Shown: piece after piece, positions 2,169 to 61,370 of the stretch
How positions within the stretch are numbered: the first letter of the stretch is position 1
Layout: each line of letters opens with the position of its first letter
NCBI GenBank assembly: GCA_963838045.1
Contig: CAWIPQ010000002.1
Span: 21,014 to 85,013 of the forward strand
Length of the DNA stretch: 64,000 bases
Direction of reading: 5' to 3'
Source: an uncultured Verrucomicrobiae bacterium
GTDB taxonomy: Bacteria > Verrucomicrobiota > Verrucomicrobiia > Chthoniobacterales > UBA10450
The notes under the pieces: model-generated
What the model was told of the DNA's origin: nothing
Database searches by the model: none
The model's input: only the letters and a program-made list of their open reading frames with translations
Translations under genes and position numbers: made by a program

Positions 2169-2314
2169 CTTCTCAACATGAATCGTATCTCGCGACCTGC
2201 TCGTATTCCTCTGATCCTCCTCCGCGAGCTACGTGCAATCTCGTGAACTGCCAGGATTTATAGTTCGGCAAATAAAATGCCGGCCTCGTCCGTGTCGAAC
2301 TCTGCTTGTGTCAG

Positions 2315-2420
2315 TCACACCGGACTTCAGTCCGGTGTGACGAACGCGCCGAATGCAGAAGCCGTTTAAACGGCTTCACACGTCCCCTTCCGATGCACCG
2401 GCCTGAAGGCCGGTGTTAAC
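2315..2420. repeat. REP-like hairpin cluster (three stem-loops)
   Basis: Three hairpins: TCACACCGGACTTCAGTCCGGTGTGA, GAAGCCGTTTAAACGGCTTC and CACCGGCCTGAAGGCCGGTGTTAAC. The same motif family occurs at 6555-6705, 16797-17005 and 17455-17945. Confidence 0.75.
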
Positions 2421-2483
2421 AAAAATAATGTGCCTTCGCGTGATTCGCGGCTGAGAATGCTAGTATCTCTAAAGTCCCGTGAC

Positions 2484-3014
2484 ATGCCTGCTCTCGAAAC
2501 CGAGCGCCTGATTCTGCGCTCGTTCACCGCAAACGATGTCGATCGGATGGCGCGGTTGTTCGCCAATCCGGATTTCATGCGATTCTCGTTAGGCGCTTTT
2601 ACCAGCCGCGAACAGACCGTCGCGTTCATCAGGAAAGTCATGGACTGGGAGCAGGCTGGCATCCCGTCGCAGTTTGCCGTTGTCCGGCGCGACGAGGACG
2701 CAGTGATCGGTTATTGCGGTTTTCTCCATCACCTGGAATTGCCAAACGAGGTTGAAATTGGGTACCGGCTCGATCCGGAGTATTGGAACCGGGGCCTCAT
2801 TACAGAAGCGGCGCGGGCTGTGCGTGATCACGGTTTTCGCGATCGTCAGCTGTCCCGTGTCATTTCGCTCATTCATCCGGACAATGTGCCGTCCCGCCGC
2901 GTCGCTGAAAAGAACGGGATGAGCGTCGAAAATGAAATTACGTTTCGAGGTTTTCCGACGCTGGTGTATGCGATAACTCGCGAGCAGTGGCTGGCGAAGC
3001 GTGGCGCTGCATGA
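2484..3014 (+). CDS. GNAT family N-acetyltransferase (RimJ/RimL-like)
   Basis: ORF 2430..3014; likely start is ATG 2484 (MPALETERLILRSF...). YWNRGLITEAARAV is an acetyl-CoA binding-type motif. Confidence 0.8.
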   Translation: MPALETERLILRSFTANDVDRMARLFANPDFMRFSLGAFTSREQTVAFIRKVMDWEQAGIPSQFAVVRRDEDAVIGYCGFLHHLELPNEVEIGYRLDPEYWNRGLITEAARAVRDHGFRDRQLSRVISLIHPDNVPSRRVAEKNGMSVENEITFRGFPTLVYAITREQWLAKRGAA

Positions 3015-3762
3015 ATTCGCGCGCCAGCGCGCGATACGCCTGGGCGGAGGGTCCGCTCGGCGTGTATTCCAAAATCGATTTGCCGAAGCTGGGCGCTTCG
3101 CTCAAGCGCACACTGCGCGGGATTACAGTTTTATAAACGCGTTCGCCAAAATGCTTTCGTACATCAGCCACCACCTGCTGGCTAAGGTTGGTCCGGGCGT
3201 CGAACATCGTCATGACGATCCCGCCGAGCTCCAACCGCTCGTTGGCGCCCGAATCGAGCACTTGCTCGATGAGCCGCACAATTTTTACCAATCCTTCCAG
3301 CGCGAAATATTCGCATTGGATTGGAGTTAACAATTCATCCGCAGCCGCAAGTGCGTTGCTCATCAGGATTCCGAGCGACGGCGGACAGTCCAGGAACACG
3401 AAATCAAACGTTTGATCCGTGCGCAGTGGTTTAAGGGTTTCCGCCAGGCGCGTGAGGTGATTTGGCATCCGCGCGATTTCTACCTCGGCGCCTGCCAAAT
3501 CGAGATCGGCGGGCACCAGGAACAGGCCTTCACGCCGTGTGGGCAAAATCTTTTCGGTAATGGAACTCTCGCCAAGGAGCGGTTCGTAAAGACTGATTTC
3601 CTCGGTTCCCTGCAAACCAAATGAGCTGGTCGCATTCGCTTGCGGATCGAGATCGACAATCAAAATCCGCTTACCCATTTCGGCCAGCGCGGACCCGAGA
3701 TTGACGGCTGTGGTCGTCTTGCCGACTCCGCCTTTTTGATTGGCAATCGCGATGATTTTCAT
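2938..3762 (-). CDS. parA: ParA/Soj family partition ATPase
   Basis: MKIIAIANQKGGVGKTTTAVNL deviant Walker A, followed by DLDPQANAT. The 3-prime end overlaps the convergent GNAT gene by 77 nt. No parB is adjacent. Confidence 0.9.
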   Translation of the reverse strand: MKIIAIANQKGGVGKTTTAVNLGSALAEMGKRILIVDLDPQANATSSFGLQGTEEISLYEPLLGESSITEKILPTRREGLFLVPADLDLAGAEVEIARMPNHLTRLAETLKPLRTDQTFDFVFLDCPPSLGILMSNALAAADELLTPIQCEYFALEGLVKIVRLIEQVLDSGANERLELGGIVMTMFDARTNLSQQVVADVRKHFGERVYKTVIPRSVRLSEAPSFGKSILEYTPSGPSAQAYRALAREFMQRHASPATARELSHTPASENLET

Positions 3763-3776
3763 TTTCGGAAATGGGG

Positions 3777-3870
3777 CACGGCCGTCCCGGCTGTGGGGCC
3801 CGTGGGCATCTTGCCCGCCGTCGGAGCAGGCGAGACGCCCGCTTTCCCCACAGACAAGATGTCTGTGCTC
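3777..3870. repeat. about 100-bp multi-hairpin repeat (family B), minus orientation
   Basis: The reverse complement aligns with 20194-20300 (GCACAGAyATCTTGTCTGTGGGG...GGGCGTCTCGCC...GGCAAGATGCC...CCACAGCCGrGACGGCyGTGC). Confidence 0.7.
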
Positions 3871-3961
3871 CGATCGCCAATGATGTTGCCGGTCACGGTA
3901 AACGGAAACTAAATTTTTCGAATTTCAGATTTGGAATTTCGGCAGTAGCGTTCGAGTCTCT

Positions 3962-6499: not shown

Positions 6500-6554
6500 A
6501 ATCTAACGTCTTTTTCCATCCAAGGAATCCGCGCGCTATGTAGCGACATTTTTC

Positions 6555-6705
6555 TCATTAACACCTCGCTTCAGCGAGGTGGTCAGAAGCCGTCCTCTCT
6601 CGTGACCGCTTTAGCGGTTTTCTTCCGTGGAAGCAAAAAGCCGCTGAAGCGGCTGCATTTTACCCCTGCATGTGTCACCTCGCTGAAGCGAGGTGTTAAT
6701 GAGAC
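6555..6705. repeat. BIME-like composite of four REP hairpins bounded by an inverted pair
   Basis: CTCATTAACACCTCGCTTCAGCGAGGTG ... ACCGCTTTAGCGGT ... GCCGCTGAAGCGGC ... CACCTCGCTGAAGCGAGGTGTTAATGAGAC. Confidence 0.75.
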
Positions 6706-10616: not shown

Positions 10617-10882
10617 AGGTGGATCGACTTCTCCGATCGAAGATTCGCCGTGGCGAAAGGCGATGACAATGTTCGCCGGAGGCGCTGTCTAGATTCTGGC
10701 GGTAAAGCGCAGCGGTACAGGCAACGCGCCCGGAGGTCGCGTTCCTTGAGGTGGATCGACTTCTCCGATCGGAGATTCGCCGTGGCGAAAGGCGCTGATC
10801 TAAGACTCTGGCGGCAAGCCGCAGCACCTATAGCCAACGCGCCCTCGCCACGGCGAGCTAGCTGCGGTCGCGTTTCACCTTT
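10617..10882. mobile_element. two tandem copies (131 and 135 bp) of a MITE-like palindromic repeat (family A)
   Basis: Each unit starts AAGGTGGATCGAC and ends GTCGCGTT(C/T)C(A)CCTT, giving terminal inverted repeats of about 14 bp. The internal arms CGCCGTGGCGAAAGGCG / CGCCCTCGCCACGGCG pair. Confidence 0.75.
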
Positions 10883-16796: not shown

Positions 16797-17005
16797 GAAT
16801 CGTAAGCCGTTAAAACGGCTGTTCCCGTTTTTCCCGGCGACCCACCGGCTTAAAAGCCGGTGTTAATGAGAGCCGGCAGGTGCAGTGGCGCAGCCGTCAG
16901 CCGTTCAACGGCTTTCTTCGTGGCGCCATCGCATTAACACCGGCCTTCAGGCCGGTGATCACACACAGCTGCGCGTGGTCAGCCGTTTCAACGGCTTTCC
17001 TCATC
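16797..17005. repeat. REP hairpin cluster on one side of the RAYT gene
   Basis: AAGCCGTTAAAACGGCT, CACCGGCTTAAAAGCCGGTGTTAATGAGAG, AGCCGTTCAACGGCT, TTAACACCGGCCTTCAGGCCGGTG and AGCCGTTTCAACGGCT. Confidence 0.8.
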
Positions 17006-17480
17006 GTGCCAACGCAATCCGTGGCGATCGGCGAATTCTCGCAATTCGTCTGCAAACGAGCGTACCGGTGATGTTCTTCTTGATCCGCGATATATCGTGC
17101 TACCTGATCTACGTTGGACTGCGACACCGAGAAGGCGCCATATCCTCTGCCCCACGCAAATTTTCCCGTGACGATGTCGTTGGAATTAACCCAGTGTGAG
17201 GAGCTTCCCTTTAGAAGTTGCACCACCTTCTCGACTGACAAGGCGGTTGGGAGATCGATCAGCGCGTGCACGTGATCGGGGTTTACAAAATTGATCTTCA
17301 TGTACACGCCTTGCTGCTCGGCATATTCCGCCAGATATCGCGACAGACCCGCCGCTGCCTTTTTTGTTTAGAAGTCGTTCCCGATTCAAAGCCGTCGAGA
17401 TCAAGTGAACAGGGCCAGCAGCGAGAAAAGCGAATGCACTGACATGGCCATTGGATCGTAAGCCGTTAAAACGGCTAGTG
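16897..17480 (-). pseudogene. REP-associated tyrosine (HUH/Y1, IS200-like) transposase, N-terminus disrupted
   Basis: ORF 16897..17307 carries the HUH motif (PDHVHALIDL), FAWGRGYGAFSVS and the catalytic-Tyr region VARYIADQEEHH. The upstream part (..VHLISTALNRERLLNKK) lies in another frame across the T6 run at 17360-17365. No clean start codon is present. Confidence 0.7.
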
Positions 17481-17945
17481 TCCATCTTTTGCGCGACGCA
17501 CCGGCTTGAAAGCCGGTGTTAATGAGAGGTCTGATTCGAGCCCCGGATTCAGTTAACCGCTACCGCGGATGCCCGGATGTGGTTTACCTTTTCCAGCTTC
17601 CTCCAAACCTTTTCCGAACGAGTTCCCTTATTCATTAATGCCGACGGCAAACTCGGCAACACCGTGCTGTCATTAACACCGGCCTTCAGGCCGGTGCTCA
17701 CCGAAGCTGCACGTAAGAAGCCGTTTTAACGGCTTCATGCACCGCTTTCGTAACGCAGTCCGGGTAAGTTCATCACGAATCGACTAACACTGCCATTGCA
17801 GGTTCCGCCCGCCCCATCACCAATATTGCCAATGGGTACGCCGATGAACGACTATGTTGATAGGCGCAACGCCCTTCTCATTCACACCGGGCTTTAGCCC
17901 GCTGCCGAGCGACGCCGCAACGTGCAAACGTTTTAACGGCTTTCC
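17455..17945. repeat. REP hairpin cluster on the other side of the RAYT gene
   Basis: A direct repeat of about 75 bp matches 16797-16872 (ATCGTAAGCCGTTAAAACGGCT...CACCGGCTTrAAAGCCGGTGTTAATGAGAG). Further REP copies lie at about 17670-17745 and 17880-17945. Confidence 0.75.
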
Positions 17946-20171: not shown

Positions 20172-20193
20172 GCAACTCGAATTCGGGTTCCGT

Positions 20194-20300
20194 AGCACAG
20201 ATATCTTGTCTGTGGGGCCGCCGGGCGTCTCGCCTGGCGCATTGATAAATGAATCAACAGGCAAGATGCCTGCCGGCCACACAGCCGAGACGGCTGTGCT
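20194..20300. repeat. family B multi-hairpin repeat, plus orientation
   Basis: Aligns with the reverse complement of 3777-3870. It lies between the desulfurase stop and the conserved part of the SprT-like gene. Confidence 0.7.
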
Positions 20301-21006: not shown

Positions 21007-21213
21007 ATGAAAATACTCGCAAGCGTAATTGCAAAGGAATTGAAGAAGGCAAAGCATTTCGCCGTATACGAACCCGAATTGACGCGTGTCTGGCCCCGCG
21101 ATGGGACAATACATGAAGCCAAAGTCGCCTCATTCGCGAAAAAGCATGGCTGGCGACTGCGCTTCTACAAAGAGGGTTTCTGCGCGATTTTTGATAGAGC
21201 GCCGTCTACGTGA
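21007..21213 (+). CDS. hypothetical small protein (68 aa)
   Basis: ORF only; no homology recognised. Confidence 0.3.
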   Translation: MKILASVIAKELKKAKHFAVYEPELTRVWPRDGTIHEAKVASFAKKHGWRLRFYKEGFCAIFDRAPST

Positions 21214-21306
21214 AGGTGGATCGAGCTCTCCGAGCTCGATGACACTATTATCGCCGAAGGCGCAGTAGTTAATCTCGCAGCAAAGCCGCTTGGCCATCCC
21301 AACGCG
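21213..21306. mobile_element. partial family A MITE-like copy
   Basis: AAGGTGGATCGAGCTCTCCGAGCTCGATG...CCCAACGCG matches the left two-thirds of the family A unit, in the opposite orientation to the copies at 22535-22886. Confidence 0.6.
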
Positions 21307-22457: not shown

Positions 22458-22534
22458 GGGCAAACATACTTTCACTATGCATTAAGCGCAAAGTTGTAGT
22501 GGCGTCTGTAACAACGGTTTTGGCGAAGCCCAAC

Positions 22535-22886
22535 AAGGTGGAACGCGACCGTAGCTAGCTCGCCGTGGCGAGGGCGCGTTGGGTGCAGCCAGCGGCTCTG
22601 CCGCCAGAATTGAGACTGCGCCTTTCGCCACAGCGAATCTCCGATCGGCGAGTGTTGCCATCGAGCTCTGAGATCTCGATCCACCTTTTAAGAGCAGGTG
22701 CTCGCTTTTGATGGCAAAGGTGGACGCGACTGCAGCTAGCTCGCCGTGGCGAGGGCGCGTTGGATGTAGCCGGCGGCTCTGCCGCCAGAATTGAGACTGC
22801 GGCTTTCGCCACGGCGAATCTCCGATCGGCGAGAAAGCCATCGAGCTCTGAGATCTCGATCCACCTTTGTAGAGCAGGTGCTCGCT
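22535..22886. mobile_element. two tandem copies (period about 182 bp) of the family A MITE-like repeat, inverted relative to 10617-10882
   Basis: Units at 22535-22688 and 22717-22868, each followed by AGAGCAGGTGCTCGCT. The reverse complement aligns with the copies at 10617-10882 and has an extra segment of about 25 nt. Confidence 0.75.
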
Positions 22887-51060: not shown

Positions 51061-51375
51061 TCAGCGACGCCCCTCGGCCAGCAACTGTCGCCTCGCTTCA
51101 AGCCAGTCGGAATCAGCGTCGCCGGCCAGTGCAAATCTCCGCCGCCGTTCGGAAATAAAGTACGCCCGGAGACGAATTTCCTCCTCTGAAGGTTCGGCAG
51201 CCGTGCGGTCTGGCTTTGCCTGCGGAGACGCTGAGATCTGTGTTGTTCCTCCAGTCATATCCTTTTTGTTCGCTGCCTTGCGTGGCTTTTTGGCAGCTAG
51301 TTGCGCGTCGTCCGCTCTGGCGCTTGCCGGTTTTCTTCGTTGCAACGGGCGCGCTGGACTCTGCAGGCGGTTCAC
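51061..51375 (-). CDS. DUF2934-like small protein
   Basis: The C-terminal EEEIRLRAYFISERRR....DADSDWLEARRQLL matches the DUF2934 pattern. The N-terminus is basic and low-complexity. Confidence 0.55.
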   Translation of the reverse strand: MNRLQSPARPLQRRKPASARADDAQLAAKKPRKAANKKDMTGGTTQISASPQAKPDRTAAEPSEEEIRLRAYFISERRRRFALAGDADSDWLEARRQLLAEGRR

Positions 51376-52714: not shown

Positions 52715-53859
52715 ATGAACTACGAACTTATTCCAAAAGAACTCAAATCGATCGCAGAAAAGGTCGAAGCGCAGCAGCGCATTTCAGAAGCGGAAGCCCT
52801 CACGCTGTATCACACGAATGATCTCAACGCGCTTGGAATGATCGCGAACGTCGTGCGCGAGCGAAAGAACGGGAACTACGCGACTTATATCCATAATCGT
52901 TACATCAATTACTCGAACATCTGCATCTTATCCTGCCAGTTTTGTGCGTTCGCTGCCAAAAAGCGCGACGCACATGCGTTCGAATATGCGATCGACGAAA
53001 TCGTGCGCGTCGTTGGGGATGCGCTCCCTCTCGGGGTCACCGAAGTGCACATGGTGGGCGGGCTGCATCCAACCCTGAAGAAAGATTGGTATCTCGATCT
53101 TTTACGCCAATTGCGCGCCCTCGACCAGAAGCTGCACATAAAGGCCTTTACTGCGATCGAGGTTCGTCATTTGGCCCAGCGCGTTTTTAAGATGCCGCTC
53201 CGCGACACGCTGGAAATTCTGCGCGACGCCGGACTGGGTTCGATCACCGGGGGTGGGGCCGAAATTTTCGATCCGGTGCGTGCGCGACAAAATCTGCCGG
53301 GGCAAGGAAACCGCCGCCGAATGGCTCGATGTGCATCGCACCTGGCATTCGATGGGCGGCCGTAGCACTTGCACCATGCTCTACGGGCATATCGAAACCG
53401 TCGCGCATCGGGCTGATCATTTACGTCATTCTGCGTGAACTGCAGGATGAAACCGGGGGATTTACCGGGTTTGTGCCATTCGCCTTCGAACCCACACAAT
53501 CCCACGGAATCCTCACCGACATAAAACGTGCCTCTGCATTCGAACAGCTGCGCAATCTCGCTGTCAGCCGGATTTATCTCGATAACCTTGACCATCTGAC
53601 CGCATATTGGGTCAGCCTTGGATTGCCGCTCGCGCAGGTTTCCCTCAGTTACGGCGTGGACGATCTCCACGGAACAATTCTGGAAGAAAAAATCTTCCAC
53701 ATGGCGGGCGCAACAACCCCGCAACAACAGAGTATTGCCGCGCTCGAGTACGCCATTCGCGAAGCTGGCCGGGAGCCAGTCCAGCGCGATAGTCATTACC
53801 GGCATATTCCGTTGGCCGCGACTCCGGCTTCTGCGCCAGCTGAGCTTGCGTGCGCGTGA
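52715..53859 (+). CDS. radical SAM enzyme of the futalosine menaquinone pathway (MqnE/MqnC family), two apparent frameshifts
   Basis: NRYINYSNICILSCQFCAF is the CxxxCxxC cluster. Three frame segments (52715.., 53253.., 53329..) together give a full-length protein. The shifts are near 53276-53284 and 53421-53425. Confidence 0.8.
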
Positions 53860-53894: not shown

Positions 53895-54689
53895 ATGCTC
53901 CGCGTCGGCTGCGTAAAATACCTTAACGCCCGTCCGCTAATCTCGGGATGGCAAGGCAGAGTCGAGTTTGACCATCCATCGGCATTATGTCGGCGTCTGG
54001 CGAACGGCGAACTCGATGTCGCGCTTGTTTCCAGCTTCGAGTTCCTACGCAATCCGATCTATCAAATCGTTGATGATGTCTCGATTTCATCCGATGGCGC
54101 GGTTTACAGCGTAGTCGTTAGTCACCGCGGCGAGTTCTCCAGGGTCCGGGAGATCCAACTCGATCCCGCATCCAAAACCTCCGTCAATCTGCTGCGGTGT
54201 CTTGTGGCAGAGCTTGGGTCAAGCGCGAATTTGATAGAGAGCGAACCTGCCGACGTCAGCTTGCCAGCGACGTCCCGAGCGCAACTTCTAATTGGAGATC
54301 AAGCCATTCAGTTTCGCCAGAAATACGGCAGTGAATTCCAATTCTGGGATCTCGGGGAACAATGGAAGAAGTTTACCGGGCTTCCCTTTGTGTATGCTTT
54401 TTGGCTGATTCGCCCCGAAGTCGTGGATGCCGAATCAATCGCGCTGCGCCTTCGTAAATTGCGAGATCAAAACCTGGCAAACCTTGACGATTTGATCGCG
54501 AAGGCTGTAGACCGTGTCGGCGGACCGGGCGACCGCAAAATGACTCGCGAATTCGTGGCTCGTTACTACTCTAAATACCTCCGATTCAGTTTTGGAGAGA
54601 GAGAAAAAAAAGGTTTACACGCGTTCGCCGATTTATGCGCAAAGCACGGACTACTTCCGAAGGGCGATCCTGTGTTCAACCTGGTTTAG
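53895..54689 (+). CDS. mqnA: chorismate dehydratase MqnA
   Basis: MLRVGCVKYLNARPLISGW...FVYAFWLIR is the typical MqnA pattern. The gene sits next to the radical SAM Mqn gene. Confidence 0.8.
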   Translation: MLRVGCVKYLNARPLISGWQGRVEFDHPSALCRRLANGELDVALVSSFEFLRNPIYQIVDDVSISSDGAVYSVVVSHRGEFSRVREIQLDPASKTSVNLLRCLVAELGSSANLIESEPADVSLPATSRAQLLIGDQAIQFRQKYGSEFQFWDLGEQWKKFTGLPFVYAFWLIRPEVVDAESIALRLRKLRDQNLANLDDLIAKAVDRVGGPGDRKMTREFVARYYSKYLRFSFGEREKKGLHAFADLCAKHGLLPKGDPVFNLV

Positions 54690-57023: not shown

Positions 57024-58223
57024 AAAGGCAGTTCGACCTGGTCGCAGCGGAGCGAGATGCCTTTGTGCTACCGTCCTGTCACGCCACCTGTTCATAGACT
57101 TCAGTCGGAATGGCGGCACGAACAATGACCGATTTTTCAACAACCCTTGAGGAATTAGGCTGGATTCAACGGCCGCGTCTGCTCGCGCTCCGACGTCTTG
57201 GCATCGAGACCGTAGAAGATTTGCTGACGCATTTTCCCCGTAGGCACGAGGATCGCACGGAGTTTCCGCATTTCCCCCGGGAGGAAAGCGAGGTTCCAAT
57301 GTGTCTCTGCGGCGAGGTCATTAAAACGTCACTGCGCCGGTTTGGCGGATGGAAGAAAATCTTTGAAGCAACGCTCCAGGAGTCGCAACCAAACGCGCTC
57401 AGCGAGCCGCTCGTGTGCCGTTGGTTCAATCTGCATTACGTGCAAAAAATGATCGCCACAGGCCAGCGCCTCGTTGTTTTTGGCAAACCGCGACTGCGCG
57501 GGAAACGGATTTGCATGGATCATCCGGAGTTTGAGGTGATCGAGAACGACGAAGAAATGTCGATCCATTTTCGACGCATCACGCCGATTTATCCGGCGAC
57601 AGAAGGTCTGTCACAACGCGTCTTGCGCGGCATTATTTATCGCGTCTTACAGGAAGTTTCAGATTCGGCTTGGGAACCGATCGCCCCTCACGGTCTGGTG
57701 CCCGGTCAGCGATCGCAAGCGATTCGCGCCATTCATTTTCCGGAGAACCTGGAGGCGCGCGACGCTGCACGCGAGCATCTGGTGCTCTCAGAGTTCTTCA
57801 CCATGCAAATGCTGATCGCTTCGCATCGTTTCGAATCATCCTCGCGCCCCGGTGAGTCGCACTGCGGGTCAGGCGCGCTGCTGGACAAATTCCTGAAGAC
57901 GCTTCCTTTCGAATTGACCGGTGCACAGCGAAAAGTGATCTCGGAAATCCGCCATGATTTGGCGGCGAATTATCCGATGAACCGATTATTGCACGGCGAC
58001 GTCGGTTCGGGAAAAACTGTGGTCGCCATCGCGGCGATGCTGCTCGCGGTTGAAGCCGGGTTTGAGGCGGCGTTCATGGCGCCGACGCAAATTCTGGCAG
58101 AGCAACATTACGAAGTGCTGCGCCGCTGGCTGGAGCCACTGGGCTTGCGTGTTTCGTTGCGAACAGGCGCAAGGCAGGAAGACGGCGGCCCGCTGCCGCT
58201 CTTTGAACGCGACAGCACAAACT

Positions 58224-58840
58224 CCGGGGAGCACAGGCTGCCAGCCTGTCGTGTCCGGCAGCCTGCCGGACACTAAGACGCGTGGAAGGTTCAAAGGCGT
58301 GGAAGGTCCAAGTTATAGCCGACGCAATCTTCCCCACTTTGAGCGGCCGTGGGCAAAATACGCAATTACATTCGCCACACGAAATCACAGACAATTGTCG
58401 TACAAGGCGCGTGATATCGTACTCGAATCGATTCTGCATTGGAAGGATCTCCGGTACGAATCTGTACGCGGCGTGTGTGATGCCTGATCACGTGCATCTG
58501 TTGATTGAACCCATGATCGAACGTGCTCCGGCGTCTGGTGACCCGGCTTTTTTTGCGGTCCCGAAGATTCTGCGCAGCATCAAGTCGTTCACGGCAACAG
58601 AAATCAACAAGGTGGAGAAGAAAAAGGAGGTCGTATGGGAAACCGAATCCTTTGATCGGTTGATTCGATCCGAGAGGGATCTGCAGGAAAAGTTTCATTA
58701 TATCACGCGCAATCCTTGGGATTCAGGGGTGGTGGAGCGGGGCAAAGATTATCGTTGGGTTTGGTATCCTGGGAGCGGCGATGCTCATGAGTTCGCGGCA
58801 AGCTGCCGCGAACGACAGGCTGGCAGCCTGTGCTCCCCGG
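58224..58840 (+). mobile_element. RayT-type HUH/Y1 transposase element bounded by perfect 29-bp inverted repeats
   Basis: 58224-58252 (CCGGGGAGCACAGGCTGCCAGCCTGTCGT) is the exact reverse complement of 58812-58840. The inner flanks continue as an imperfect IR (14 of 21 positions) and each end forms its own hairpins. Confidence 0.85.
58299..58840 (+). CDS. RayT-like REP-associated tyrosine transposase (one apparent +1 frameshift; no stop codon inside the element)
   Basis: The GTG 58299 frame gives SRRNLPHFERPWAKYAITFATRN...KDLRYE. After an extra base near 58461 the next frame gives LYAACVMPDHVHLLIEP (HUH)...ESFDRLIR...FHYITRNPWDSGVV (Tyr region). Confidence 0.7.
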
Positions 58841-59834
58841 ATGAGAAACACCTCGCTCCCAATATTCCTCAAATCGTCGTCGGGACGCACGCATTGCTGT
58901 ATGAATCAGTTTCCTTCTCGAAACTGGGATTGGCGGTCATTGATGAACAGCACAAGTTCGGCGTCGCGCAGCGCGCTCGCCTAACAGCGCGCGAACCGGC
59001 GCCGGATGTGCTTGTCATGACGGCTACGCCGATTCCGCGCACGCTGACGATGACCATCTATGGCGACCTCGACCTATCGACAATTGATGAGATGCCGGGG
59101 CACCGCGGAAAAATTATCACTGCAGTCCGGGATACTTCGAAGCTGGGTGAAGTACTCAGTTTTTTGCGATCGGAATTGGAGAAAGGACGTCAGCTTTATG
59201 TGATCTATCCATTGATTGATGAAAGCGAGAAGCTCGACGTGAAAGCGGCCGCTGCGGAATACGAGCTCTGGCGTGAACGTCTGCATCCGTACCGCTGCGA
59301 ACTGCTTCACGGCCGGATTCCAGCGCCGGAGAAACAGCAGATCATGGATCGTTTTCGACGTGGCGAGACGAGCGCGCTGATCAGTACAACCGTGCTCGAG
59401 GTCGGTGTGGATGTACCGAATGCCACCGTGATGCTGATCGAAAATCCGGAACGCTTTGGTCTCGCGCAGTTGCATCAACTCCGTGGACGAATCGGCCGCG
59501 GCGAACACAAGTCATATTGCATTTTACTGGGCCCCAAACAGGAAAAGGAGGCGGCCGCGAAACTCGCGGTTTTGGAACGAACAACAAATGGCTTCGAAGT
59601 AGCGGAAGCAGACTGGGAATTGCGCGGTCCGGGCGATCTGCTCGGCACAGCACAGAGCGGCCTTCCGGCGCTGAAGATTGGCGATCTAAAACGCGATGCA
59701 GACCTGATGCGCCGTGCCCGGGCTGCAGCGATGTCGATCTTTGAAATGGACCCCCGCCTGGAGCTGCCCGAAAATCAACGTTTCCGGCGTTTAATTGTCG
59801 AACAACAGGGACAGAGTTTCTCGCACGTTAGTTG

Positions 59835-61370
59835 ATGAAAAATCTCGCAAAATTTTTTCTTTTTGTACTGCTTTTAAGCGCAGGAATTTCACTGCTTTAC
59901 GATTACCGGCTCAAGCATGGAGGGCTAAATTTTTCGTCCGGGCGCACACCGGAAAAGTACACATTTGCCTCCCACTCGGCTGTTGAGCCAAAACAAGTCG
60001 CGTCGCTGGAATCGTTGAGTCAGGAACGGCGTGCGTTGGTGAAAAGTGTGATTCCCTCAGTTGTTTCAGTAAAGACATCGACCAAGGTCGCCGTCCGACG
60101 CGAGTATGGAGTCGATCCGTTCGAATTTTTCTTTCCAAATCAACGCAGGTTCCGCAACCCTCGTGACGAAGAGCTGGTGCAGAATTCACTGGGTTCGGGC
60201 GTGATCGTGACCAACGAAGGCCACATTATCACCAATAATCACGTAGTGACCGACAGACAGGGCCGTCCGGTAGATCAGATTGAAGTGCAACTGAGCGATG
60301 GTCGAACCAAAAAGGCCCGTCTGGTGGGCGCGGACGAACAAGTAGACCTGGCAGTCCTTAAGATTGACGAGCCTGGAGTCAAACCTCTCAAGCTTGCCGA
60401 TTCCGACTCGGTCCAGCCGGGAGATTCTGTTCTGGCTATCGGTAATCCGCTTGGATTTGACGAAACCGTGACCGACGGAATCATCAGTTCAAAAGGCCGG
60501 CCGAACCGGAGCGATTTTTTTGCCGAGCTGCTGCAGACTAATGCGGCAATTAACCCGGGCAACAGCGGCGGCCCTCTGATCAATATCCGCGGCGAGGTGA
60601 TTGGGATTAACACCGTGATTGCTTCGACCACTGGCGGTTCACAGGGACTGGGTTTTGCGATTCCTTCGAACACAGTTCGTAGCGCGCTGGAAAGTTTGTT
60701 GAAACAGGGGCGAATCATTCGTGGATATCTTGGTATCCAGACAGGGCCGTTGCAGCGGGGTGCTGGCGCACCGGATACTGAAGGCGTGACCGTGGGTGAC
60801 GTGATCTCCGGGTCGCCTGCGGAGCAGGCGGGCCTGCAGCCCGGCGATGTCATCCGCAAATTCGACGGACACGACGTGAAGAATTTCGGCATGCTTCGAA
60901 CTCTCGTCGCCGGAGCGCCGCTAAATAAGAAAGTAGACCTGCAAATCGTCCGGGACGGAAAACCTTTGACAGTGCAAGCGCAGATCAGGGAACAACCGAT
61001 GGATTTCGAAAGCGCGCGGGTTCTTCCGCGCGGCAATCAGCCGCAATTACAACGTCCGCGACAGCCAGACGATCAGGGAACCGTCGGCGGTCCCCTGGCA
61101 TCCATTCAGGTGGACCAATTAACCCCGGAAACCGCGAGCCAGCTCGACCTGCCTCCGAACGTGCAAGGGGTGTTGGTAACAGGAGTCGATCCCGACAGCG
61201 GTGTAGCGGAATTACAAAAAGGCGACGTGATTGAAGAAATCAACCAACAGCCGGTGACGTCCGTTGCCGACTATAACAAAATCGCTGCCTCGCTCGACCC
61301 AAGCCAGCCACAAGTCTTGTCAGTTTGCCGCCATCGCGCGCGCTCGTTTTTGGTGTTGCGACCGCGATAG
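59835..61370 (+). CDS. htrA: HtrA/DegP-family serine protease with two PDZ domains
   Basis: Catalytic triad context TNNHVV, DLAVLKI and GNSGGPL. It has an N-terminal TM segment, and the start ATG 59835 overlaps the recG stop. Confidence 0.92.
   Translation: MKNLAKFFLFVLLLSAGISLLYDYRLKHGGLNFSSGRTPEKYTFASHSAVEPKQVASLESLSQERRALVKSVIPSVVSVKTSTKVAVRREYGVDPFEFFFPNQRRFRNPRDEELVQNSLGSGVIVTNEGHIITNNHVVTDRQGRPVDQIEVQLSDGRTKKARLVGADEQVDLAVLKIDEPGVKPLKLADSDSVQPGDSVLAIGNPLGFDETVTDGIISSKGRPNRSDFFAELLQTNAAINPGNSGGPLINIRGEVIGINTVIASTTGGSQGLGFAIPSNTVRSALESLLKQGRIIRGYLGIQTGPLQRGAGAPDTEGVTVGDVISGSPAEQAGLQPGDVIRKFDGHDVKNFGMLRTLVAGAPLNKKVDLQIVRDGKPLTVQAQIREQPMDFESARVLPRGNQPQLQRPRQPDDQGTVGGPLASIQVDQLTPETASQLDLPPNVQGVLVTGVDPDSGVAELQKGDVIEEINQQPVTSVADYNKIAASLDPSQPQVLSVCRHRARSFLVLRPR

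Follow-up and report, generated by a model that had tools for sequence, protein, structure and literature searches.

RAYTs, the REP-associated tyrosine transposases of the Y1/HUH type, are textbook domesticated bacterial transposases, and how they are maintained is unexplained. They have been portrayed as genes that are present once per genome and inherited vertically (PMC5581495). The canonical layout, with inverted REPs on either side of the RAYT, is called a REPtron (PMC3733652). REPtrons and the TIRtrons/TIRYTs have both been described already (PMC3733652; PMC6006769). REPs that lie in frame within genes are also known, notably in genes of replication and repair, for example in Opitutus terrae and in Rickettsia (PMC3733652). 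In a large survey (Quentin 2018), 'unexpectedly long' Y1 proteins were thrown out as fusions or errors (PMC6006769).

The locus discussed here lies in a stretch of 64 kb (the window, i.e. the whole of the DNA that was analysed). As the original prediction stated, it comprises a RAYT-type Y1/HUH gene with inverted hairpin repeats at either end, and in the sequence as it stands this insert divides recG. What the arrangement means is read differently here. With a probability of about 0.7, the locus is an ancestral, selected, in-frame REP-RAYT-REP cassette in recG, and the split seen in the window is due to two probable sequence errors.

RecG in the window

The two parts of RecG in the window and their landmark motifs are the following.

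57110..58222, + strand: RecG N-terminal part, with the wedge domain and helicase motifs I and Ia; codon starts 2 mod 3
58004-58018, + strand: GSGKT of the RecG N-terminal part
58842..59835, + strand: RecG C-terminal part, with motifs III-VI and domain 3; stop codon 59833-59835; codon starts 1 mod 3
58882-58896, + strand: GTHAL of the RecG C-terminal part
58942-58953, + strand: RecG motif II, DEQH

The N-terminal part is held by the ORF 57110-58276, which matches the Pfam families RecG_wedge and DEAD; its amino acid identity to the RecG of the closest relative (P0002/L002) is 95%. As sequenced, it ends at a TAA (58274-58276) within the left REP arm. The recG reading frame is interrupted by two frame changes, at ~58223 and at 58461, which split the fused ORF into pieces of 388 and 517 aa. 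If both are errors, the intact recG::RAYT product would be 907 aa long.

The frames of the two RecG parts (2 mod 3 and 1 mod 3) had been called correctly, and the accompanying claim that deletion of 617 nt restores a single RecG frame was borne out as well. Removal of 58224-58840 yields a continuous protein of 702 aa that passes both RecG equivalog models, with 786 bits against NCBIfam NF008168 (cut-off 718) and 673 bits against TIGR00643 (cut-off 659). This cassette-free protein contains the RecG wedge, DEAD, Helicase_C and RecG_dom3_C domains and matches 1gm5, the RecG of T. maritima, at E 2e-136. The insertion site falls within RecA-like domain 1, between motifs Ia and II, where it separates the strands aligned to VALLIG and VVIGTHAL of 1gm5. 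The site is a surface loop of helicase domain 1 that is permissive and hypervariable and directly precedes the GTHAL strand. Between 57 and 60 kb, Rfam detected neither an intron nor a known RNA; a sub-threshold match to Ysr141 lies within recG coding sequence.

The REP-RAYT-REP cassette

58223..58841, + strand: REP-RAYT-REP cassette, type B, with inverted repeat arms; 619 nt here
58223..58273, + strand: left REP arm, with hairpins at 58233-58249 (invariant ACAGGCTGCCAGCCTGT) and 58251-58273
58314..58460, + strand: RAYT N-terminal part (YSRRNLPHFERPWAKYAITF...), frame 0
58461..58461, + strand: surplus T (TACGAA-T-CTG) that shifts the RAYT frame, from the DNA alignment with L001
58462..58773, + strand: RAYT C-terminal part, frame 1
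58489-58497, + strand: HUH motif (HVH) of the RAYT
58699-58701, + strand: catalytic Tyr codon of the RAYT (KFHYITRNP)
58791..58841, + strand: right REP arm, with hairpins at 58791-58813 and 58815-58831; translated FAASCRERQAGSLCSP, in frame with the RecG C-terminal part

The insert (G+C 0.546, window 0.551) had been predicted to encode an HUH/Y1, RayT-like protein, and it does. The frameshift-corrected RAYT translation scores 29.7 bits against Pfam Y1_Tnp (PF01797; cut-off 23). Its best NCBIfam match is REP_Tyr_transpos, which is covered over the entire model at 75.1 bits (cut-off 80), and the transpos_IS200 model gives 23 bits (cut-off 55). In a profile search of PDB sequences, TnpA-REP (4er8) ranks first at E 0.012; single-sequence phmmer gave marginal matches only. 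The structure model of a RAYT that is 80% identical to that of the window (P0121) has a pLDDT of 83.6. All 29 Foldseek hits of this model at E <= 0.001 are Y1 HUH transposases, and 4er8 is matched at E 1.8e-5 (TM 0.53/0.61).

The RAYT of the window has no stop codon and reads into the C-terminal part of RecG (ORF 58282-59835). A translation start of its own (GTG 58282 or 58299) was ruled out, since the linker that would contain it is unconserved and is missing in L001, where the RAYT starts two codons past the REP arm. An intein was ruled out too: there is no Hint or splicing domain, and Y1_Tnp is the only Pfam match of the insert translation.

For a full RecG::RAYT protein (P0008), AlphaFold had only a shallow set of aligned close relatives to build on, and with a mean pLDDT of 48 the model was too poor to be used in the fold search or in any reading of domain packing. 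Within it, the RAYT part reached a pLDDT of 77-86 and the REP-coded linkers stayed below 50. The TnpA-REP of E. coli is reportedly a monomer, according to the work on 4er8. It is therefore plausible that the nested RAYT domain would be active as an insert in RecG.

The REP arms and the REP family

The perfect 29-bp inverted repeats of the original prediction were confirmed to the base (58224-58252 against the reverse complement of 58812-58840). Even when 3 mismatches are allowed, the 29-nt repeat occurs in the 64 kb in these two copies only (0.00 expected from shuffles), and no further copy of the REP unit, termed REP-B, was found in the window. The inverted complementarity extends to 58223-58268 and 58796-58841, that is 46 nt at 91%. 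Each arm folds into two tandem hairpins with a dG of about -19 kcal/mol (z about -4).

From 135 copies, the REP-B unit was defined as tTCYGGGGAGC (the consensus starts TCYGGGG) followed by the invariant hairpin and the second hairpin. The latter covaries across these copies: its outer stem varies in sequence yet keeps its complementarity. The REP core GAGCACAGGCTGSCAGCCTGT was found in at least 116 stretches of species-representative genomes, with several per genome. All hosts of the stretches listed are MAGs of Udaeobacter, Chthoniobacterales or Verrucomicrobiota, and many of the stretches are inverted doublets about 100 nt apart, i.e. REPIN-like. Among the loci listed, the type B RAYT is found only in RecG frames of ~900 aa (L030, L038, L050 and L090). 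Except for the location of the RAYT, this is a classical RAYT/REP association.

The cassette in the recG of relatives

With the reconstructed RecG as a query, close orthologues of 80-95% identity were retrieved, most of which come from Candidatus Udaeobacter and Chthoniobacterales metagenomes. In many cases a single protein of ~900 aa contains PF01797 within RecG; JGI labels these fused orthologues 'RecG-like helicase/REP element-mobilizing transposase RayT'. In 119 RecG cluster representatives, the loop that AEQHY and VGTHAL enclose was extracted. It is of RAYT size in 74, intermediate in 18 (REP-only or truncated RAYT) and short in 27 (e.g. PLPLFSGDDAHQII). The original prediction was to fail if orthologous recG genes had equivalent native coding sequence at this position, and such sequence stands there in those 74 of the 119 representatives. 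The empty junction predicted from the window (...ERDSTN-Y-EKHL...) was not found in any RAYT-less RecG allele examined.

At least four cassette types (A-D) occupy the one RecG site, each with its own REP-encoded flank peptides, and hybrids occur. The flank peptides of two types are as follows.

Type A: GSARLQRAG... to ...STLQACAP
Type B (the type of the window): GSTGCQPVVSGSLPDT... to ...QQAGSLCSP

In all types, the REP arms, the linker and the RAYT are stop-free in the RecG frame. The intact type B cassette measures 618 nt (206 codons) in L129, L130, L131, L135 and L138.

The RecG search is biased to long ORFs. As a second sample, metagenome contigs were scanned with an alignment of the type B RAYT core, independently of ORF structure, which gave 80 loci with 67 distinct RAYT DNA sequences. 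The RAYT lies in RecG in 74 of the 80, always in sense orientation. One uninterrupted RecG and RAYT frame is present in 69 of these 74 (60 of them with both flanks); the other five show a frame break, deletion or stop at varied positions. The remaining 6 of the 80 loci lie outside recG. Their RAYTs are 63-67% identical and are nested in frame in alanyl-tRNA synthetase (AlaRS; L188) or in the methionine synthase MetH (L192, L195 with two RAYTs, L197, L198 and L199). Nesting in AlaRS or MetH is likewise seen in the protein hits P0127, P0131 and P0136. L002, to which the window is most closely related, has a further RAYT cassette that is read in frame within an MqnA-like gene; the MqnA-like homologues of the window and of L001 are without it. 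To judge from these loci, the cassette would normally be carried in frame inside recG in Candidatus Udaeobacter and related Chthoniobacterales, and be translated as part of RecG.

Selection and age of the cassette

Six type B alleles were aligned by codon: the window without its two surplus bases, L001, L030, L038, L050 and L090. In the RAYT core dN is 0.11-0.20 and dS is saturated, so dN/dS is ~0.1 or lower, similar to the RecG parts; with dS saturated in most type B pairs, this ratio is bounded only. The HUH motif and the Tyr are both intact in 71 of 75 RecG-nested copies, and the Tyr is present in all 75. The nested RAYT is under purifying selection.

Identity at third codon positions across the six loci reaches 0.94 (left arm) and 0.83 (right arm), against 0.46-0.50 in the coding parts of RAYT and RecG. 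The high values of the arms imply that they are conserved as nucleic acid, beyond the needs of the protein. Between the window and the other type B alleles the synonymous sites of the RAYT are saturated, which marks the cassette as old. Between the window and L001 in particular, dS is ~0.5 for RecG and saturated for the RAYT, so that the cassette is either older than its flanks or has been exchanged.

Probable exchange between alleles, and an inverted allele

The closest RecG (P0002), whose flanks differ by 2.5%, carries a type C cassette at the same site, and the cassette types are interspersed on the tree of RecG flanks. At the DNA level, the window and L002 are homologous up to 58214 and again from 58867 onward. 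The differing stretch (58215-58866) exceeds the interval from one inverted repeat to the other, which points to recombination rather than transposition. The right flank (...SPDEK...) goes together with the type B alleles. Most likely, then, cassette types, REP-only remnants and empty loops replace one another through recombination of recG alleles.

The proposal that the RAYT unit moved recently survives in this weaker form only, as an exchange of cassettes between recG alleles, P0002 having another type. As a transposition it is contradicted by the occupation of the site across the lineage and by the saturated dS of the RAYT. Nor is a RAYT between inverted REPs in itself a sign of mobility, since this is the canonical REPtron layout (PMC3733652).

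One allele has the same cassette at the same site in inverted orientation. It lies on an Illumina-style contig (L120, which holds P0121). Its flanks align to the opposite strand of L130 and L131 with 99.5% identity, its 618-nt cassette aligns to the same strand with 100% identity, and the flank and cassette alignments overlap by exactly the 46-nt arms. In this arrangement the division of recG is real, and the RAYT does have an ATG and a stop codon of its own. This one contig indicates that the cassette flipped in situ, by recombination in its inverted REP arms. When proteins were searched with the peptide of the antisense cassette, no candidates for more inverted alleles came up.

The split of the window copy

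58208..58226, + strand: left junction zone with one surplus base; RecG N-terminal part in frame 2, left arm and RAYT N part in frame 0 (PGSTGCQPVVSGSLPDT...)

Frame 0 of the left arm and the RAYT N part is the frame used by every in-frame relative (PGSTGCQPVV). At the left junction, the RecG N-terminal part is one base out of register with it. The second frame change, at 58461, was confirmed against L001, L030, L038 and L090. The cassette is 619 nt long here and 618 nt when intact. That the frame is restored by a deletion of 617 nt follows arithmetically from the two surplus bases. For any chosen pair of boundaries, there is a one-in-three chance that a deletion of length 2 mod 3 restores the frame.

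The same kind of break is found around recG. Alignment with L002 reveals four more single-base insertions, at 51297, 53278, 53428 and 62028. They disrupt conserved neighbouring genes: a radical SAM gene is hit twice, and a hypothetical gene and a TENA-like gene are hit as well. For 53278, 53428 and ~62030, the insertion shows up in comparisons with L001 and with either L090 or L030 too, up to three independent relatives in all. After each break the protein stays 86-99% identical to its relatives, with no further decay. All six breaks in ~16 kb of coding DNA are single-base insertions; there are no deletions, and none lies in a long homopolymer. A comparable insertion pattern is shown by L119, an error-rich contig of long-read style. 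As like insertions break three neighbouring conserved genes, those of the window are probably assembly consensus errors. That the two surplus bases in recG are sequence error is thought quite probable.

Alternative readings

Taken at face value, the frame breaks are present in the sequence as given, and they could be genuine. The nested recG::RAYT would then still be ancestral, with RecG and RAYT inactivated by real frameshifts, perhaps as part of a wider gene decay. The breaks in several neighbouring genes would fit such decay, and 5 of 74 metagenome loci also contain a frame break, deletion or stop. The pattern of the breaks speaks against it: real decay sits poorly with six single-base insertions in 16 kb that include no deletion and avoid long homopolymers, with downstream protein that is 86-99% identical and shows no further decay, and with the occurrence of the same pattern on the error-rich contig L119. 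Moreover, essential-looking genes are affected, such as the radical SAM gene of the menaquinone pathway, which is hit twice. A real pseudogene is accordingly judged unlikely. Less likely again is a tolerated passenger, i.e. a selfish in-frame insertion in a permissive RecG loop whose RAYT domain has no activity or role. RecG evidently does not require the cassette, as REP-only remnants, truncated RAYTs and empty loops are found at the site, and in-frame intragenic REPs are known elsewhere (PMC3733652). A dead domain is not expected, though, to show a dN/dS of ~0.1 or lower with a near-invariant HUH motif and Tyr, and the conservation of the REP arms at synonymous positions also argues against a mere passenger.

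The recent arrival of a small autonomous RAYT/IS200-like element, bounded by the 29-bp repeats, in an intact recG that precise excision would restore, is considered very improbable. It would account for the exactness of the 29-nt inverted repeats and for the frame restored by the 617-nt deletion. The nearest allele (P0002) has another type, so the type B cassette of the window is not orthologous to it, and the MqnA-like cassette of L002, absent in the window and in L001, speaks for gain or loss on short time scales. Against a recent insertion stand the cassettes of the same type, at the same site and in frame, in 69 of the 74 RecG-located metagenome loci. As for the type B RAYT, 74 of its 80 metagenome loci, and 4 of the 4 listed from the genome scan, are in recG; no empty allele has the predicted junction, and the RAYT is saturated in dS against the other type B alleles. 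The intact cassette of 618 nt is a multiple of 3, the RAYT has neither a stop nor a conserved start, and the segment that differs from L002 (58215-58866) is larger than the inverted-repeat bounds. An autonomous insertion sequence of the IS200/IS605 type was rejected on similar grounds (no stop, no conserved start, one site per type and saturated synonymous sites between copies).

Proposed mechanism and significance

On this account the ancestral, selected cassette is REPtron-like, with two inverted double-hairpin REP units around a RAYT gene. The sequences show it to be stop-free and in frame from end to end, so that the RAYT has no start, stop or promoter apart from those of recG and forms an internal part of a ~900-aa RecG. 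They also show that selection keeps the RAYT functional and that the REP arms are kept as DNA hairpins. By homology with E. coli TnpA-REP, the nested RAYT presumably binds and cuts matching REP/REPIN hairpins in the genome. The cassette would be inherited together with recG.

A further-reaching reading, offered tentatively and thought rather improbable, is that of a domesticated HUH transposase that has no gene of its own. It would persist as an internal domain of RecG, AlaRS, MetH and the MqnA-like protein, intein-like at the DNA level, with a functional RecG fusion and a flipping cassette. If so, the fork-remodelling RecG would deliver the RAYT to extruded REP hairpins. The cassette would flip between its REP arms and thereby convert a RecG::RAYT fusion into a split recG with a free-standing RAYT and back (L120 compared with L130).

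The broader nesting pattern is of more interest than the original claim. A RAYT is fused in frame into a conserved repair helicase of one of the most abundant soil bacteria, and others into AlaRS, MetH and an MqnA-like protein. This suggests a mechanism of persistence, in which expression is driven by the host gene and loss would require a precise in-frame deletion. It also suggests a physical coupling, open to test, between a helicase for branched DNA and a hairpin-specific single-strand nuclease. The natural alleles form a series that lends itself to experiments: besides the four types of cassette, there are alleles with REPs only, alleles with an empty loop and one in which the cassette is inverted. 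In automatic annotation, loci of this kind will be mistaken for disrupted genes or for fusions to be discarded.

Comparison with known systems

In the literature, no description was found of a RAYT that sits inside RecG or inside any other host gene; the search was incomplete, and a prior description is possible. The system that comes closest is the REPtron of the E. coli yafM type (4er8; PMC2817692, PMC5581495, PMC3733652). Both have a Y1/HUH protein with the motifs and fold of the RAYT type, and both have inverted flanking REPs that belong to a genome-dispersed family, partly as REPIN-like inverted doublets. Furthermore, the RAYT type found here is mostly confined to one fixed site (recG), would be inherited with recG and is under purifying selection. 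Known RAYTs, in contrast, are free-standing extragenic genes, while the RAYT described here lacks a start and a stop codon of its own and is translated, together with its REP arms, within RecG. The REP unit also differs, being a double hairpin that lacks a GTAG or CGTC tag, and the NCBIfam RAYT score is 5 bits below the cut-off.

The TIRtrons or TIRYTs (Di Nocera 2013; Quentin 2018, PMC6006769, subclass 2.1) share the tyrosine transposase between long inverted repeats. Their repeats likewise begin G-rich (GGGGWSAS as published, GGGGAGCA here) and form modest families. The motif agrees in part only, however, and the arms of the present cassette are true REP hairpins; nesting in a host gene is not described for TIRtrons. 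Like the elements of the IS200/IS605 group, the cassette encodes a transposase of this superfamily, measures ~0.6-0.7 kb, has terminal hairpins and lacks a target duplication. An ORF of its own, asymmetric subterminal hairpins in place of inverted repeats, multiple copies at many sites and presence on plasmids, all features of IS200, are not seen here.

The intragenic REPs and the Rickettsia palindromic elements (RPE; PMC3733652) are also palindromic repeats that lie in frame in housekeeping genes, notably those of replication and repair, and are tolerated in surface loops. The REP-only alleles of the RecG loop are of exactly this kind. Inserts of those two kinds, though, comprise 20-80 aa of non-coding origin, whereas the cassette in recG additionally contains an entire enzyme domain of ~150 aa. 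Homing-endonuclease inteins resemble the cassette in that a selfish enzyme domain resides in frame in conserved replication or repair proteins and is expressed via the host gene only. Unlike an intein, the insert in RecG has no Hint or splicing domain and presumably stays in the mature protein. In kind, the locus is a RAYT/REPtron; the arrangement that is new is its in-frame nesting in housekeeping genes.

Orientation and integrity of the type B cassette

The REP-RAYT-REP unit in recG (the type B cassette) occurs in the opposite orientation in one metagenome locus, L120:

L120 (ENA ERZ27285809 k141_4661349), 945-1562: inverted 618-nt type B cassette; counterpart at 2410-3027 of the metagenome loci L130/L131

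The RecG site is the same as in L130/L131 and the cassette is 100% identical, while the flanks (99.5% identical) lie on the other strand. The breakpoints of the inversion fall within the 46-nt arms. In L120 recG is split, and the RAYT there begins at an ATG of its own and ends at its own stop. From the comparison of these loci, the type B cassette could be invertible.

A frame break, internal deletion or stop was found in 5 of the 74 RecG-located metagenome type B loci (L143, L150, L159, L165 and L169). As the lesion lies at a different position in each, some recG::RAYT alleles, i.e. RecG frames that read through the cassette, may be in genuine decay. Frame breaks are also seen near recG in the window itself:

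window 51297, 53278, 53428 and 62028: single-base insertions relative to the closest relative, L002; conserved genes shifted between frames

The genes broken relative to L002 are a hypothetical gene, a radical SAM CofH-like gene (twice) and a TENA/THI-4-like gene. The insertions at 53278, 53428 and ~62030 recur in the comparison with the relative L001 and with L090 or L030. The pattern of these single-base insertions suggests that the window consensus carries insertion errors.

Other repeats and Y1 sequences in the window

window 16897-17307 (-): second Y1 transposase-like ORF, IS200-like (NPDHVHALIDLP...ARYIADQEEHH)
window 2312-2420, 6553-6704, 16799-16957, 17455-17701, 17879-17909: another palindromic repeat family (CACCGGCCTTCAGGCCGGTG, TTAACACC...)
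window 3827-3872 and 20191-20236: 46-nt inverted pair (87%), containing ...GGAGCACAGACATCTTGTCTGTGGGG...
window 10617-10881 and 21213-21244, 22534-22886: repeat clusters, direct (50-119 nt) and inverted (30-48 nt), 91-96%

The IS200-like ORF, possibly truncated, is located amid copies of the palindromic family. The inverted pair displays the type B REP layout (GAGCACAG, then a hairpin) and probably represents a further REP family of this genome. The repeat clusters are common to two sites ~12 kb apart.

A match to Rfam Ysr141 at 57946-58184 (-) scores 54 bits, versus a gathering score of 196. This sub-threshold match falls within recG, in the region of motif I, and most likely reflects a coding-sequence artefact of the Ysr141 model.

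RAYTs nested in other host genes

L002, 5868-7532: MqnA-like (VitK2_biosynth) gene with in-frame RAYT cassette; window homologue at ~53898-54686

This RAYT is of a different kind (RRNLPHWEQEGATYFVTF...VVMPNHVHVLVQP) and is bordered on both sides by ~36-aa repeats. The MqnA-like protein is 554 aa long in L002, compared to 263 aa without the cassette; neither the window nor L001 has this insert in its copy of the gene. Alanyl-tRNA synthetase (metagenome locus L188) and methionine synthase MetH (L192, L195, L197, L198 and L199) also contain in-frame RAYTs, which are related (63-67% identical); protein matches P0127, P0131 and P0136 show such nesting in these two enzymes as well. One MetH in L195 holds two RAYTs.
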